From Octopus vulgaris (Eukaryota): DNA of 64,000 nucleotides. Made by a program: the position numbers and the translations under genes. The stretch's first letter is position 1. Every line of letters starts with the position of its first letter. The DNA lies in assembly GCA_951406725.2 (NCBI GenBank), contig OX597814.1:40052001-40116000 (forward strand). Direction: 5' to 3'. Shown here one piece after another: positions 10,804 through 63,409 of this stretch. The notes under the pieces are model-generated. The model was not told the DNA's origin. It saw nothing but the letters and a program-made list of their open reading frames with translations, and ran no database searches.

Positions 10804-10810
10804 ATATATA

Positions 10811-11100
10811 ATTGCAGCGTGGAAGGTGTTTATAAGCCATTTAAGAAACACACACAACTGTTACATTCACTTCAACATTTAAATATAATTTGTCAAAATT
10901 ATATTCGTCGTTTTGAGACCGCGACCTGTTCACTGTCAAAGCTTCGTGCTGCATCTTTTTCAGTGAACAAGTCGCGGTCTCAAACCGAGGAAAATATTTG
11001 AACAAATTAAATTTAAATGTTGAGGTGAATCTAACGGTTTTGTCCGTTTCTTAAATGGCTTACAAACACCTTCCACACTACAATTGTTTTCGTTCCAGCA
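10811..11100. mobile_element. About 280-bp palindromic non-autonomous element with hammerhead-like arms, copy 1
   Basis: Nearly the whole span is an imperfect inverted repeat (attgcagcgtggaaggtgtttataagccatttaag ... cttaaatggcttacaaacaccttccacactacaat). One end abuts (TA)n and the other carries a ttttcgttccagca tail. An inverted copy lies at 38519-38814. Confidence 0.85.
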
Positions 11101-11145
11101 TTCTATCTCAGATCAAGTCACTCGGTATGCAAGTACATCTCCCTA

Positions 11146-28859: not shown

Positions 28860-30670
28860 CATATTTTTATTTTTATTTTATTTAGTTTCAGCTCACAAGC
28901 TGTGGCCATGCTGGGGCACCGCCATTTGGTGTTGCTACATGATTTTACTTCACGAATGCTTTTTAGCAAATGCCATCTGGTGCATGAGAGAGTTCGATGC
29001 AGCTGCCCTCATGTGCATCTCCATCCGTGAAGTTGGTTCATCTGGGACACCTGACAAGAAGAGATCCAGTTTCATTTTAAATACATCTGCATCCACTCCA
29101 TGCAAGTCTCTTAGGTTCTTCGGGAGGATATTGAAGAGCTGTGGGCCTCGGAAGCCCAGGCTATCACAGTATCTTGTCCTACATCTTGATGGCAAATTTG
29201 GAGTCCTTGGCACTATGCAGTGGCGTTCAGTTCTGGCATTTGTGTAACTCTCGATGCCAAAGTTTGGGACAAGTCCTTTAGGATTTTCCAGATGTATATT
29301 ATGGCATATCTTTCTCGCCTACGCTCTAAGGAATAAGGAATAATAATCTCTTGAGTCTTTCCCAACAGCTTATATGCTGCACAGACGCTATCTTCTTCGT
29401 GTAGCTTCGTTGGATCGTCTCAAGTTCTGTGATTAACTTGACACTGGATAGTGACCATAGTTGAAAGCAATAGTCAAAGTGGCTTAGGACAAGTGTCCTC
29501 CAGAGGACCATCATGGTTTCCTGGTCGCTTGTTCTAAAGGTTCTGAGAATCGATCCGGTCAGCCGTCTACATGTCATTGCCAATTTGGCAACATGCACAT
29601 GAAAGGTTGCATCCTCACTCATGTAAATACGCAGGTCTCGCACTGATTGTGCCTCTGGGATTGCAATCCCTCCAGGTCCAGTGTATTTATTGGGAATTGC
29701 ATTTAATTTTGCATGCTGATAGTATAATGCTTGAAACTTTTCAGCATTGAACTGCATTCTTTTCAGCCCAATTGTATATTTTGTCCAGCTCACATTGCAG
29801 GTGCTTAGCGTCTTCAGGGTTCTGTTTTGCCTGTGAAACTTTTTTATCATATGCATAACTTGTGATCGTGGCTCTCTGCGTGGCTGAGGGCATGTCTGAG
29901 AGGGCCATTATGAACAGCAGTCGTCCCAGAACAGTGTCTTGCGGAACACCACTCACTATTTGCGTGTTAGTGGCTACTACCACCTGACTTCTATCCTTCA
30001 GAAAGTCATGAAGCCATTGTCCCAATTTTCCAACTATTCCAAGATCACGCAGTTTGTGACATATCATTCCATGATCGACTTTATCAAAGACCTTTGCAAA
30101 GTCGAGATATATGACTTCCACATTTGAGTGGTTGAACAGTCGTTTCAGCATCCAGACATAGTGTTGTAGGAGCTGAGTTAAGCAGCTTCTTCCTGGTCGG
30201 AAACCATGTTGGGTGTCAGGCAGCAAGTCATTTCCTTCAAGGAAGGAGATCAGTTTCCTTCTGACTATTCGCTCCATGGCCTTGCTGATGTGTGAGGTCA
30301 GAGAGATAGGTCTGTAGTGCTTGGCCTCCGCTCTGCTACCTCCTTTATGAATAGGGCATATTTTACCTTCCTTCAGATTTCTTGGAAGTTTGCCAGCTGC
30401 AAGGAAGCTCTGAAAGAGGAGCTGCAGTGGTCTTGCTAGGACTCTTTTACATACTTTTAGAAGGATTGCTGGGAATTCATCGGGGCCAGTAGCTGAGTTT
30501 GTTTTCATTTCATCAATAGCCATTGTTTTCATTTCATCGTCTTCCTTTATATTGATGTAATCAATCATCGCTGCCTCTGATTTTAGATCTGCAGTGGTAA
30601 AGAAGTCAGTTGGATTGCTGACTTGAAAATGCCATAGGGGTGGAGTGAAAATACTCTTGAATTGCTCATT
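28860..30670 (-). mobile_element. 5'-truncated CR1/Jockey-group LINE, RT and 3' end
   Basis: GPDEFPAILLK..YRPISLTSHISKAMERIV..QHGFRPGRSCLTQLL..IYLDFAKVFDKVDH..SGVPQDTVLG..SYAYD (mutated YADD). C-terminal GPQLFNILP..VPDEP; (TAAAAA)n-like tail; frameshifts. Confidence 0.95.
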
Positions 30671-30700
30671 TATCTATCTCTCTTTGTCATTCATGTAATA

Positions 30701-33968: not shown

Positions 33969-36235
33969 TTAACCCTTTCCACCCTTTGAGCCCATCCTGA
34001 CATGGCCTCCACCCAGATTTCCCATTGAAAATTTGCAAAAAAATTCATTTAAGGTTTATTTTTATTCATGTGCTAGGTTTTTCCTGTTATTTATGATAAA
34101 TAAAGAAATAAAATACCTATTTAATGTTGTTTATTTTATTTACTCATTCTACCTCAAAAACTGAACTTTAGCGTGCCAGTCACGCCAGCAATTTTACTGT
34201 TGTACCCTGAAGTACAAGAAAGCTTTAAAACAATTGCACCAGTAAACTGATTTTGAATTTTGGGGAAGTCCCTTCTATGTAGCACTTGATTATGTTGTCT
34301 AACCCTGTCGTGTTTTTCTAGGCACACTACACACCTATTGTTCAATGTTGCATGGAGACCTTTTTCCACCGCGTGTGATCTGTAATATTGTAGGCATTTG
34401 TTTGTGTTCGGACGTATTTTAACCGATAATAGATAGCGATAATTGCCTACAAGTTCATGGCAGAGTTTTTGATAAACGCATGGAACGTAAACACTCTTTG
34501 CACTGTGGATTATGCGGCTTATAATGTCCCATGATAACGTATGTATTATACGCGGCCAACATGAAAAAAAGTTCTTACTTAGACTACGTGACTATTTGAA
34601 ATGACATCTACTCCGATGTAGTTTGGCAAGTTGTTCATTTTTATCGGTGCCATCCATATATGCATTGTAACTTTGGATAGGTTTTGGGCAAACCACAGGA
34701 AGTTTTCTGTGCTTTTTACTACCTCACCTTTGTACTTGAAGGGTGCATTATAAATGTAGATGTTAGAAAATAAATGGAATTTTTGCGCGCCAAGAAAATT
34801 ACTGCTACAATTTCATTGAATAACAGTTCAAATTTACCCTGGCAGATTTGATTTTTGTGATTTGATGAGGTTTGTTAGATAATGTCCACGATTTGTAAGT
34901 GCAGTGCCTACTAAGCAGATTCCTCTGTTTTCCCTTAAAAACTCGCACAAATATACGTTAGTGTAGAATCTGTCAGTGAACACGAAACTGTCCAACAAAC
35001 GAACAACAAGTTTTCCAGTCACACCAAAGCTTTCAAATGTTTCGGCATCCCCTCTACGACCTGTATATACTTCTACCTTTGAAATATATCCATTCTCACT
35101 ATTACAAATAAGGAAGGTTTTGATACTCCACTTTATCGGTTTTTCTTTCATATGCTGTTTTATAGATAGGGGTATTTTGTCGGAGTCATTCCTTCGTCAT
35201 GTGACAAATTGCTTCACTGTGTGTAATGCAACATCCAGTTTCGAACAAGTGATTGAACACGGGCATGAATTTGTAAATCTTGTCAGATTTGCCTAGTTAA
35301 GTTAAACTATGTAACAATAAACCATATTGCTAAAAATTTATCTCCTGTGCAAATCCAGGTGTAAAATCAAGAATGTTCCTTATCTCGTCTATATTGCTCA
35401 TAGTGATCCTTGTGAATAAGCTTTTCCATCGCTACTCCACTGCAAAATATTGCTTTTATCTCTAATATTGTCATGGCCTTAGAGCTAAAGGATTTTGCAT
35501 AATAATTTGAAGCTTTTGCTTCTCTGATATGTCAACTTGGCTATTAGTTTCATCGACAAAGAGCTCCCAGAGACCATCATCCTACAATAAATTGAAAAAG
35601 TCAACAGGGATGCTCACATTATTAATTGAATCCGGAATAGATTTTTGCCGGGTGTCTTTAGGATTGAATTGTCTTTCAGTGAAGACTCTAGTGTCACTTG
35701 TCCACTGAGTCTTATCAGACAGTGACTGAGAAACCCGTCGCACAACTTGACCAGCACATCTACCGTGACCCCGGCCCCTAACAGGTAGTAAAACATCACC
35801 ACCCGGGTCGTGATTATCAACAGAGTCACTATTATTTTCATTTTCACCTACATTTACACTTGTCTTATTATCATTTGTAATGTTGACATCATCTTCACTC
35901 TCTTCGCTTTCAAAATCACTATTACTTTCATAATCAGACTCTCCATTCTCATCATCAGGATCCGACATTATCATTCGTAATGGCTGTTCGATTGTCACTT
36001 TCTTACACTTCCTGTTTATAGCATAAATAAATAAATAGTTAGATAAAAAAAATACTAAAAGAATCTGCAATTCAGGTGTAAAAAATTCCCACTGCTTCTC
36101 CCGAAAGTTCGGCCGTGAATTGAAGCTTAAACAGCTATGTAAAACGGTACTTTGTTGGTTAAATAGTGAACTAGCGGGTATGTATATACTATATACTCAG
36201 GCCAGAAAACCGGCCTGGCGTGTTCCAAGTGTTAA
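33969..36235 (-). mobile_element. Decayed piggyBac (PGBD4-like) transposon
   Basis: Acidic N-terminus ..PVDFFNLL; KPIKWSIKTF..NGYI..EVYTG..VFTDRFYT..VGT..NR; IQSYNAYM..DKNEQL; Cys-rich end RCVVC..VYWC..CWRDWH. TTAA at 33969-33972 and 36232-36235. TIR similarity is weak, so the ends are tentative. Confidence 0.9.
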
Positions 36236-38160: not shown

Positions 38161-38518
38161 CATATATATAGAGAGAGAAACAGAGAGAGAAAGAGAGACA
38201 GGCAAACAGACAGAGCTACATATATATATACATACATATGTATATATATATGCATACATATGTGTAAATATACATATATATACACACACATATATACGTA
38301 TATGCATATATATATGTGTGTTTGTGTATGTGTGTGTATTACAAACAATAAAATTGATAGAGAACAATTGAGAATCTAATAATTTATTTTAATTATAAGA
38401 TAATATACGAGTAAATATAATATATTATTTGTATTGGTTATAATTATCATAAATCTGTTTTGTTTACGGAGTCCTCCCTTCGATAAATTACGCAAATAAG
38501 GACCATAATTTGCTAGTG

Positions 38519-38814
38519 TGCTGGAACAAAAACAATTGCAGCGTGGAAGGTGTTTTTTTATAAGTCATTTAAAAACACACAAAAACCGATAGATTCGGCT
38601 CAACATTTAAATTTTATTTGCCAAAATATCTTTGTCGTTTTGAGCCCGCGACCGATTCAATGACAAAATTATGTGCTGCACAGAATTTTGTCAGTGAACA
38701 AGTCGCGGTTTCAAAGAGACGAAAATATTTTGGCAAATTAAATTTAAATGTTGAAGCGAATCTATCGTTTTTTTCTGCTTCTAAATGGCTTATAAACACC
38801 TTCCACGTTGCAAT
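38519..38814. mobile_element. About 280-bp palindromic element with hammerhead-like arms, copy 2 (inverted relative to copy 1)
   Basis: Same arms as 10811-11100. The tgctggaacaaaaac tail is now on the left and a TA-rich junction is on the right. Confidence 0.85.
38687..38737 (+). ncRNA. Hammerhead-like motif with variant core GUGAACA
   Basis: UUUGUCA-GUGAACA-A-GUCGC[gguuucaaa]GAGAC-GAA-AAUAUU-U-UGGCAAA: 7-bp stem I, stem II, GAAA, palindromic stem III and NUH triplet UUU. Confidence 0.55.
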
Positions 38815-52008: not shown

Positions 52009-54234
52009 GAGGACGAAGTACTGCGTTTGTTGCGAAGGAGCTTCGACACTATGATCTTCACATCGTTGCTTTATCTGAGACGAGATTAGCCGGAGATGGA
52101 CAACTTACAGAATCTTGTGGAAAATATACATTCTTTTGGAAAGAGAGGAATGAAAAGTTTAGAGGAAAGGCTGCGTTAAGCATTTGCTGTTAAGACTGCT
52201 CTTGTAGACAAATTGGAAAAATTCCCAGTCGGGATTAACGAGCGTCTTATGTCTATGAGAATTCCTTTAGTAAAAGGAAATTATGTGACCTTGGTTAGTT
52301 TGTATGTTCTAACTATGTGCTATACTGATGACGAAAAAGTTTTTTTCTACCATGCTTTGAAGGGCATAATAAGACATATCACTCGGGCAGACAAAGTCAT
52401 CGTACTGGGTAACTTTAATGCTAGAGTGGGTAGGGATTTTAACACATGGATTGTAATTGCAAAGCATGGGGTGAGAAAGTGTAATAGTAATGGCATACCT
52501 CTGCTGCAGATGTGTGAGGAGCTGCGTCTGTGTGTTACCAATACCATGTTTCGACAAAAGATTAAGTTTCAGACCACATGGATGCACCCTGCATCTAATG
52601 ATTGTCATATTCTGGATTGCATCCTTGTCAGGGTGCGTGTGTTTGTGTTCTGTGTGGGGCTGTGTGTTGGACTGGCCAACGCCTAATACGTGCAAAATTG
52701 AAATTAGTGGAAATTAGTGGAACAGGATTTAGATTAAAATCAGGTTTCTATCGATCTGACAAAACCCTTTCATACCGTTAATAGAAATGCACTGTGGAAA
52801 GTTCTCCAGAAACTTGGGTGTCCTGAAAAGTTCCTTGCTTCGGTTAGGTCTTTTCATGAAGACATGAAGGGTAGAGTTAATTTTAGAAGGAAAATGTCGG
52901 AGCCTATTTCAATACAAAATGCGATAGTTTTCTGTATTGCATTCAGAAACTGCAGATATAGTGTTTACTTTCCATTATGGAACCTCTGGCAGCATATTTA
53001 ATATCAGGCGCTTTACTGCCAAAACAAATATATTTACCTCTATCATAAGATACTTTTGTGTGCAGATGATTGTGATTTAGTAACGCTGGCAGAGATTCAT
53101 ATGCAACACATTTTGAATGTTTTCTCTGATGCTTACACTGCCTTAGGATTGACAGTCAGTCTCAAGAAAACTGCTGCCTTGTACAAACCTGTCCTGGTAA
53201 GCAGTATAGTGAACCAAATATCTATGTGTATGATAAACGACTTCATGTAGTTGATCGGTTTGTCTACCTGGGAAGCACTGTTAATAGATATAGCAATTTG
53301 TATAATGGAATTCTATACAGAATTAGGAAAGCAAGTGATGATTTCGGAAGGCTAGAAAGGCGCCTCTGGAGCCGGCGAGAAAAAGATAAAGGTGTACAAG
53401 GCATGTGAGCTCTCTTCTCTTCTTTATGCCTGCAAGACGTGGGTCACGTATCGATACCTCTTTAAAAAACTGGAAAGATTCCATCAGATGTGTCTCAGAC
53501 AGATCTATGGGATTAAGTGGGAGCAACACATCAGTGATCTTGAAATACCAGAAAGCTCTCCGTGTGAAAGTATAGAAGCTCTTGCCTTAAAGCCAAGGCT
53601 CAGATGGAGTGGTCAGAAGTTAGCTAAAGGAGTACGACCTCCACAAAAAAGAGGTATAAGAACTTGCTGAAGGCTTCCTTAAGAGATGCTTGCATCTCTG
53701 CTGACCCATGGGAGGGCATAGCCATTGACCGTAGCAGGTGGTGTTGTTTGTGCACGTGGGGACAGCTACTTTTGAGAAATCTCGAGTTGTGCATGAGAAA
53801 GTAGGGAGGGATGCCAGGAACGGTATCGCTGTTGCACTTCCAGATCGTAAGGATCTTCCTATGATGCTGACATGCAGTGTCTGTGCAAGACCCTGCCACA
53901 GTAAGGCTGGACTCAAGAATCATATTCGTAGTCATAAAGCGAGACAGATGATTGACAACCAGGACACTAGTGGTAGTGCTACACACCATACTAATCATAT
54001 CTCTCAGGTATGTAGAAGGGAGTGTAATTCGGCGGGATGGCTTAAACGATACGCAAAGGTACATGTAGCCCAGTTACAACTACATCACCCTACTGCCGGT
54101 AAAGGTTTTATCTGCCAATTCTATACAAGACATTGTAGATCTTTAGCTTGGCTAAAGAGTCGCATTCGATCACAGCACCGATAATTGTTAAACCTCGTGA
54201 AATATCCATACTCCATAACGAGGGAGCACCCATC
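52009..54234 (+). mobile_element. Internally deleted RTE-clade LINE (APE, RT, three C2H2-like fingers)
   Basis: IVALSETRL..INERLMSMRIPL..VLGNFNARVG..NSNG..TWMHP; TVNRNALWKVLQKLGCPEKF; CADDCDL; FVYLGST..ASDDFGRL; LLYACKTW. Flanked by (TGTA)n on both sides. Confidence 0.95.
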
Positions 54235-62610: not shown

Positions 62611-62878
62611 TGTTTTATTATGCCATAATCTAAATATTATTTTCCTAACATCAATGACATACATTTTTATTATTTAGAATCTGCTTCCCGTTTGAGGCCA
62701 ATCTGAAGCTAATTTTTTTTTAAATGTTTCACCACGTAACTTATTTGAATTTCGGAATAAAATTTTCTCCCTAACAGCTTTTAGTCAATACAGTTCTATA
62801 TTTAAGAGATGAGGAATTATGTAAAATATTTACATTATTTACATTTGACGAATATTTGTCCTCATATTGTATGCTGTT

Positions 62879-62924
62879 AACACAACGTTTCGGCTGATAT
62901 ACCCAACAGCCTTCATCAGGTGTC
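62879..62924 (-). ncRNA. Minimal type I hammerhead ribozyme motif
   Basis: GACAC-CUGAUGA-A-GGCUG[uuggguauau]CAGCC-GAA-ACGU-U-GUGUU: intact core, 5-bp stems I and II, loopless palindromic stem III (dimer type), triplet GUU. Confidence 0.8.
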
Positions 62925-62971
62925 ATGTTATATTTCGAACCTGGGTTCTAATTCCTACCCCACATGCCCAC

Positions 62972-63046
62972 GAGCATATGACATAGTGGTGAAGAGCGCA
63001 TGCTACTAACCCAAAGATCCTCAATTCGATTCCAGGCAGTGACCTG
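62972..63046 (+). promoter_or_regulatory. tRNA-derived Pol III type-2 promoter-like head (degenerate)
   Basis: A-box-like tgacatagtgg, anticodon-loop-like ctactaa and B-box-like aattcgattcc at tRNA spacing. Does not close as a cloverleaf. Confidence 0.6.
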
Positions 63047-63409
63047 AATAATGATAATCATAATAATAATAATAATAACAAAAACATCGAAAATTATCTT
63101 AGGAATGAGAACCCAGGTTCCACATTTCCCCAAGACACCTGATGAAGGCTGGAGAGTATATCAGTCTAAGATGAGGACAAATATCTCTAAAATATAAATA
63201 ATGTAAATAATGTATTGTTTAGTCACTCATTCATTCTAAATATTTTATGTATTCGTTCTCCAACGAACAGTCTACTATTTTTCCTCGTCCATATTCATAT
63301 TTTTCGGCGGAAATTCAATTCCCATGCTGTCGAAATTAGCTGATTAAATATTTTTGTGTGATGAAATTTCATTGGCAACCGATGTTGGTCTCAGACTACT
63401 TGCATTCGC

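Follow-up and report, generated by a model that had tools for sequence, protein, structure and literature searches.

Inverted Repeat Copies in the Window

The window, by which we mean the whole 64,000-nt stretch of Octopus vulgaris contig OX597814.1 analyzed here, contains two inverted copies of one repeat family and, for comparison, an unrelated inverted pair.

38516..38680, minus strand: inverted pseudo-LTR (pLTR) arm plus part of the 3' tail, 80-84% identical to the L165 and L058 references
38674..38680, no strand: head-to-head junction, a 7-nt overlap covered by both arm alignments
38674..38814, plus strand: pLTR arm of a Penelope-like element (PLE), approximately nt 4-148 of the 208-nt unit
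38687..38737, plus strand: minimal type I hammerhead motif (from sequence, folding of the parent copy and covariation in six families)
38687-38693, plus strand: stem I, 5' strand (sequence)
38694..38700, plus strand: core GUGAACA with G3 and C8, GTGAACA in DNA (sequence)
38702-38706 with 38716-38720, plus strand: stem II (sequence; one mismatch in the window copy)
38721-38723, plus strand: GAA (sequence)
38724-38729, plus strand: palindrome AATATT (sequence)
38730, plus strand: U17 (sequence)
38731-38737, plus strand: stem I, 3' strand (sequence)
38730..38731, plus strand: predicted scissile bond after U17, placed by hammerhead numbering
38785..38814, plus strand: first ten codons of the parent PLE ORF, which open the ORF in the near full-length copy L165
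10810..11145, no strand: second head-to-head copy, in (TA)n, with a short arm (10810-10956, minus) and a tail-bearing arm (10955-11145, plus)
62780..63230, no strand: unrelated inverted pair with a canonical C3-G8 minimal hammerhead (core starting at 62919, minus)

The plus-strand arm of the first copy has its 5' limit near the likely transcription start and its other limit at the short 3' end of the unit, with 84% identity to the 3' pLTR of the ORF-bearing L165 and 89% to the subfamily A copy L058. In both pairs of the family the arms differ in length because one of them carries the 3' tail. Both copies had been recognized in the initial annotation, although with limits that we correct to those above, and the pair had been described there as tail-to-tail; in fact it is the 5' ends of the arms that meet, and the strand bearing the hammerhead reads away from the centre, a head-to-head arrangement. 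No clear TSD was found at 38516-38814.

The motif at 38687..38737 consists, in order, of stem I, the G3-C8 core, an extra base, stem II, GAAA, a palindromic stem III and U17. The same order had been read before, with the exception of the extra base, which was omitted; it sits between A9 and G10.1 and is A in the window copy but G in most copies. The stem II originally quoted, GUCGC/GAGAC, is present but holds a G·A mismatch, where the family majority has a perfect GUCGC/GCGAC. Because of this mismatch the right arm fails a strict hammerhead scan, which the motif near 62879 passes, and from its sequence the right arm is likely a dead copy. The core of the left arm has decayed to TTGAATC. As previously noted, GTGAACA occurs in three of the four arms of the two copies (10933, minus; 10963 and 38694, plus), and the motif at 62879 has the same order of parts, there with C3-G8 and on the minus strand. 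Its family is nevertheless unrelated to that of 38516-38814 (no BLAST match). The pair at 62780-63230 is also head-to-head, its hammerhead being intact on the minus strand and decayed on the plus strand. Elsewhere in the window, translations around 29700-30700 and 34100-36200 on the minus strand read like decayed LINE-type RT and endonuclease frames, and one around 52180-52680 on the plus strand like an acidic N-terminus of piggyBac type.

Family Size and Insertion Pattern

A DNA search of the 2.8-Gb genome returned 2,996 candidates, 40 of which were scored. The pattern composed of core, stem II and GAAA has 6,057 exact genome matches against 0 for the reversed pattern, which puts the family at about 6,000 arms with the G3-C8 core; hammerhead motifs of any 3-8 type were absent from 60 third-order Markov windows of 64 kb. 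At least two subfamilies exist, A and B, which differ in loop II and keep the core and stem II. The unit is a 208-nt monomer, found solo (many arms are) or with an inverted partner, and the position of the central junction varies from copy to copy. Two 3' ends are preferred, near nt 150 (about codon 11) and nt 208 (about codon 31), some 60 nt apart. Targets are TA-rich, with 56 of 114 insertions touching microsatellites; among the 58 non-microsatellite insertions, 29 share at least 8 nt across their flanks (range 8-15 nt, mode 12), compared with a mean of 2.2 and a maximum of 7 in the control. Inspected loci are solo or inverted, apart from a few same-strand pairs about 380 nt apart (L161:7256 and 7634; G000:C2:193492568 and 193492949), which may be triple (direct-inverted-direct) insertions or short tandems. 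The loci L062 and L063 hold a dense nest of rearranged mariner-like fragments together with subfamily A pLTRs, which here run on into the N-terminus of the ORF.

A long inverted repeat with thousands of copies, represented in the window by a copy without coding capacity, has the appearance of a DNA-transposon MITE, whose likeness to a hammerhead would then be a matter of chance. The unequal arms, variable centre, abundant solo arms and TSDs of variable length all speak against such an origin; symmetric fixed ends, a constant interior, a TSD of fixed length and a DDE transposase partner were not found. Moreover, the arms are directly continuous with a PLE ORF, and it is because of this linkage that we regard the MITE reading as refuted, its probability being negligible.

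A Penelope-Like Parent

The monomer terminates in an ATG-led frame, and some copies reach 5' into a microsatellite-rich UTR joined to a GIY-YIG ORF, whose domain scores over the Pfam cut-off. Of 377 ORF candidates, 20 loci were taken from the best 40, and at 17 of these the G3-C8 motif lies in sense 947-1,694 nt downstream of the matching GIY-YIG ORF. The near full-length L165 comprises a pLTR, an ORF that opens with the N-terminus predicted, a UTR and a pLTR with tail; the repeat is found on both sides of the ORF, and the ORF starts inside it. The ten codons encoded at 38785..38814 align with the N-terminus of a sister family. A single frame with RT and C-terminal GIY-YIG spans 839 aa in L162 and 1,025 aa in L216. 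Older subfamily A pLTRs also stand behind related ORFs (L208, L211-L214, L217), which are 60-89% identical in segments, and these pLTRs resemble the subfamily A arms of the window.

All the characters of an EN+ PLE are present: an ORF with RT and GIY-YIG, a pLTR at both ends that overlaps the ORF start, an optional 3' tail, an inverted 5'-truncated copy, and variable TSDs in AT-rich or (TA)n targets. This anatomy matches that described for PLEs (PMC8557442, PMC3846280, PMC11167929). We consider it almost certain that the hairpin family is a pair of PLE pLTRs, as had been proposed for the apparent MITE from the window alone, with the anticipated PLE ORF now found beside the arm and the arm running on into its N-terminus.

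The assignment to a clade is less straightforward. The parent protein carries RT motifs, a short CX3CxxC linker and CCHH; in the RT region it can be aligned with a Neptune RT at E 4e-10, and its linker resembles, by eye, published Nematis rows. Compared with Neptune-like elements of the same genome it shows 25-30% local identity and forms a long separate branch, so that no grouping with Neptune RT-EN was found, in a tree holding two Neptune-like ORFs of the same genome, labelled by motif reading, and no Nematis reference. The best database protein match has 54% identity and is labelled Octopus vulgaris by its source.

Several other candidate parents were rejected. A Hydra-like ORF in L006 is merely an insertion target: on the minus strand of that locus a family copy flanked by a 12-nt duplication interrupts a broken PLE ORF, whose RWK and DKT motifs point to the Hydra clade. 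A 781-aa Neptune-like family has its own U3-A8 motif, and the Neptune-like ORFs beside L125 and L133 are neighbours only. The former family (L096-L103; L096:4873-4935) has many intact 781-aa frames and an upstream ORF, and the hammerhead of its pLTR lacks the extra base. A second U3-A8 hammerhead lies upstream of a truncated parent ORF (L209:5960, minus) and probably derives from a different PLE family. A pattern search aimed at coding sequence downstream of the tail produced two matches, both irrelevant.

Covariation of the 3-8 Pair

The C3-G8 pair is key to the active hammerhead structure. To our knowledge, G3-C8 has been known only as an engineered rescue. In the octopus family, aligned arms carry G3-C8 in 42/49 and 19/25 cases and C3-G8 in none, and C8 follows in 5,777 of the 6,116 genome matches with G3 and the fixed context, a degree of fixation that bears out the suggestion of a natural covariant core. 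Both core bases are changed in just 5 arms genome-wide in the subfamily A context, none of them to C-G, and no variant of at least 5% at base 3 or 8 was present in contigs of four runs under four organism labels.

The sister family, whose protein is 54% identical (branch support 100/99), shows C3-G8 at the corresponding position; its stems I, II and III have changed in a compensatory way, and base 9 is C. This is a young PLE family (L200:5924-5985, L201-L203, L218) with a 1,311-aa frame and an Asn-rich insert; its core, CUGAUGC, is identical in all copies seen, and L251 likewise has C9. Metagenome loci were scanned with positions 3, 8 and 9 left free (78 loci, 375,896 nt), giving 4 motifs, three of them in close relatives, against 1 in the reversed control. 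A relaxed scan of the 17 metagenome loci with ORF ends added one motif, for a total of 4/17, all 99-120 nt behind the ORF match; a credible motif was absent at the other 13 of these relatives, several of which have short flanks. The four relatives with a motif have U3-A8 or C3-G8. Overall, the 3-8 pair is G-C, C-G or U-A in all six families, even though the scans did not demand pairing there, while the 63 of 66 stem cells that pair in the six-family table are partly circular, since stems were required by the scans. Pairs were read by structure, because three rows of the divergent motifs came out misaligned in MAFFT.

The intact parent RNA is predicted to fold stems I and II unaided, with pair probabilities of 0.7-1.0. 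Judged as a minimal type I hammerhead, the motif has N3 U G A N N8 A with the 3-8 pair as G3-C8, GAAA, A15.1-U16.1 and H17; stems I and II form and covary, and stem III is palindromic. The literal CUGANGA is not matched by the family core, so that descriptors built on it miss the family, as the initial annotation had foreseen. The Rfam hammerhead model does not match the motif either and equally misses the canonical one at 62879; in one Rfam scan, the best 150 of 249 matches were all microsatellite-driven. We conclude that the motif is, very probably, a homologous hammerhead with a natural G3-C8 pair. The central proposal made from the window, that the arms are PLE terminal repeats whose G3-C8 core is a natural covariant, is thus supported, and none of the testable findings named there as contrary to it (among a consensus without GAAA and stem I, clean TIR/TSD links to a DNA transposase, or absence of cleavage as monomer or dimer) was encountered.

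Does the Motif Cleave?

We predict that with the swapped pair the active site retains its geometry but works at a reduced rate, and we lean, by a modest degree, toward a G3-C8 hammerhead that would cleave. The genomic copies speak against activity. Copies were selected by their 3' part, and of the first 30 out of 566, 8 have 5' ends at nt 1-4, 3 run through the promoter and 19 are scattered, some with internal deletions; none mapped to the predicted cut and at most one is compatible with it. Furthermore, a hand count of the first 100 of 339 non-C8 matches gave 43 G, 39 T and 18 A. The share of G8 seems, from these counts, too high for neutral decay and suggestive of a pair-broken sub-lineage that spread; four of six G8 arms seen have a common loop II variant. 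G3·G8 arms, over-represented among non-C8 arms (L328, L331, L333, L334, L205), would make up about 2% of all arms, as either a derived loss or an intermediate of the swap. Cleavage looks dispensable, given the lack of 5'-end clustering at the predicted cut and the apparent spread of the G3·G8 sub-lineage.

Folding predictions add that G3 can pair with U17 (0.67; C17 would give 0.98) and A13-A14 with U17-U1.1, pairings that would trap an inactive fold. The former is the mirror of the C3-G17 trap described in PMC3884650. No tertiary contact between loop I and loop II is evident.

In an alternative scenario the repeats are the same PLE pLTRs but the G3-C8 motif no longer cuts, being a folded leader recognized by the ORF protein or the translation machinery, or a vestige. 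The distribution of 5' ends, the persistence of an uncut motif in thousands of copies and the spread of G3·G8 arms agree with this scenario, as do the reports that hammerhead mutants left insertion unaffected with no reads ending at the cut (PMC11167929) and that minimal PLE hammerheads cut poorly in vitro (PMC4209133). Nonetheless, bases 3 and 8 form a tertiary pair of the active fold (PMC3884650), and their complementarity in all six families is what selection on the catalytic fold predicts; also, cleavage at the site removes the cap from the RNA, which may then just fail to integrate. Loss of cleavage is a serious possibility, to which we give about one chance in three, and a slowly cutting hammerhead is the reading we retain below.

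Origin of the Short and Inverted Copies

Parent copies have a TATA-like stretch about 30 nt upstream of the A of TCAG, followed by the pLTR. Many of the short copies begin at this TATA/initiator-like site and carry an additional G. The base before AGATG is G in 116 matches and A, C or T in 135. When 30 non-G matches were sampled, 15 proved to be promoter-linked (13 identified by script and 2 by eye), against 0 of 30 G matches. Since half of the sampled non-G matches are promoter-linked, G accounts for about 60% of true junctions in AT-rich targets; 16 solo G copies have no common upstream sequence. The extra G likely reflects reverse transcription of the cap, judging by analogy with L1 and SVA, where an untemplated G marks capped copies (PMC4859970). 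A non-autonomous master with a fixed end was also considered and dropped after promoter-linked copies were found.

Splicing could also set the 5' start of the short copies, with the AG as intron acceptor and the G as the end of an upstream exon. CTAAC, a pyrimidine tract and AG do precede ATGCAG, giving the look of a branch point and 3' splice site, and introns ending beside the hammerhead are known in Drosophila Penelope (PMC4209133). However, the short copies retain the AG and gain a G, the 16 solo G copies lack a common upstream exon sequence, and a GAG|GT donor is absent from the UTR of 5 of 7 parent copies checked, with none common to the other two. The TATA-like stretch about 30 nt upstream, the TATA and initiator described in rotifer pLTRs (PMC3846280) and the untemplated G of capped L1/SVA copies all favour a promoter instead. 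A splice-acceptor function of the AG is possible but fits less well than a capped start, and splicing as the source of the 5' ends is in our judgement improbable.

Internal initiation by RT has been shown for the Poseidon element of Anolis, PAc (PMC11167929), and together with the evidence of a cap this predicts cDNAs that cover the pLTR only. In the mechanism that we put forward, RNA polymerase II would start at the A of TCAG, about 30 nt behind the TATA-like stretch, and produce an RNA of an endonuclease-bearing PLE whose 5' leader holds a minimal type I hammerhead with a fixed, swapped G3-C8 pair. This motif has likely retained a slow cutting activity, exerted as a dimer or assisted by protein, while the majority of copies would be made from uncut, capped RNA. 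The RT of the element would prime at a nicked AT-rich target, initiate internally on the RNA, either about 150 or about 208 nt from the cap, run to the cap and add a G, with the pLTR alone as product; a second, inverted copy joined at microhomology would complete the MITE-like hairpin. As a whole, this combination of head-to-head EN+ PLE pLTRs, a slow G3-C8 hammerhead and copies of uncut RNA is, with good probability, the best explanation.

Comparison with Known Elements and Ribozymes

The minimal type I hammerheads of metazoan PLEs (Cervera and De la Pena 2014, PMC4209133) share with ours the position in the pLTR, an extra base between A9 and G10.1, G10.1-C11.1, a palindromic stem III, a short stem I, frequent U17, motif pairs on opposite strands and, in one covariant, U3-A8. 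In contrast, the core here is G3-C8, while GUGANCA occurs in none of the representative cores of their Figure S3 examined; the extra base is G against A, C or U in their consensus, and stem I has 7 bp. Natural covariation of the 3-8 pair is also described by Perreault et al. (2011, PMC3088659), with U3-A8 alone named in the parts available, so that natural U3-A8 is reported in both sources. In the literature searched, which was mostly non-subscription and partly excerpts, no natural G3-C8 hammerhead was found.

In PAc (Frangieh et al. 2024, PMC11167929), as in the octopus family, the pLTR overlaps the ORF start, two 3' ends define the tail, targets are AT-rich and uncut RNA is the likely template. 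In the hammerhead of this element an engineered C3G/G8C change partly restores cleavage; the swap is natural here, and the PLE clade is different. Moreover, PAc has its start codon inside stem II and a tail of 30-40 nt; here the start codon is found about 57 nt behind the cut site and the tail measures about 60 nt. With the EN+ Nematis and Neptune PLEs (Craig et al. 2021, PMC8557442) the family shares a C-terminal GIY-YIG with CCHH, a CX3CxxC linker, (TA)n targets, inverted 5'-truncated copies and a tail, but its RT motifs A and B are separated by about 100 additional residues, and its short linker resembles that of Nematis. Finally, non-LTR retrozymes (bioRxiv 10.64898/2026.07.22.740005) are likewise short PLE-derived hammerhead repeats with many monomers, yet they form tandem arrays, whereas the octopus repeats are scattered pLTRs, solo or inverted, whose ORF-bearing parent has been identified.

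Significance

A broader scenario may be envisaged, which we advance tentatively, doubting that it will hold in full: this PLE family, mobile in recent times, would have fixed the first naturally occurring active G3-C8 hammerhead, within a clade that swapped its 3-8 pair among C-G, U-A and G-C with G3·G8 as an inactive intermediate, and the MITE-like hairpins would be cap-to-internal-primer cDNAs of uncut RNA, a general PLE route. The roughly 6,000 G3-C8 arms, the C3-G8 sister and the U3-A8 relatives constitute a natural series for the study of the 3-8 pair and of the effects of position 17. CUGANGA descriptors undercount PLE ribozymes, which bears on claims of PLE clades without ribozymes. The short, likely cap-derived copies are an independent line of genomic evidence that PLE reverse transcription initiates internally, and they illustrate that MITE-like hairpins can be retrotransposon ends. 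Finally, uncut copies make the purpose of PLE hammerheads directly testable.
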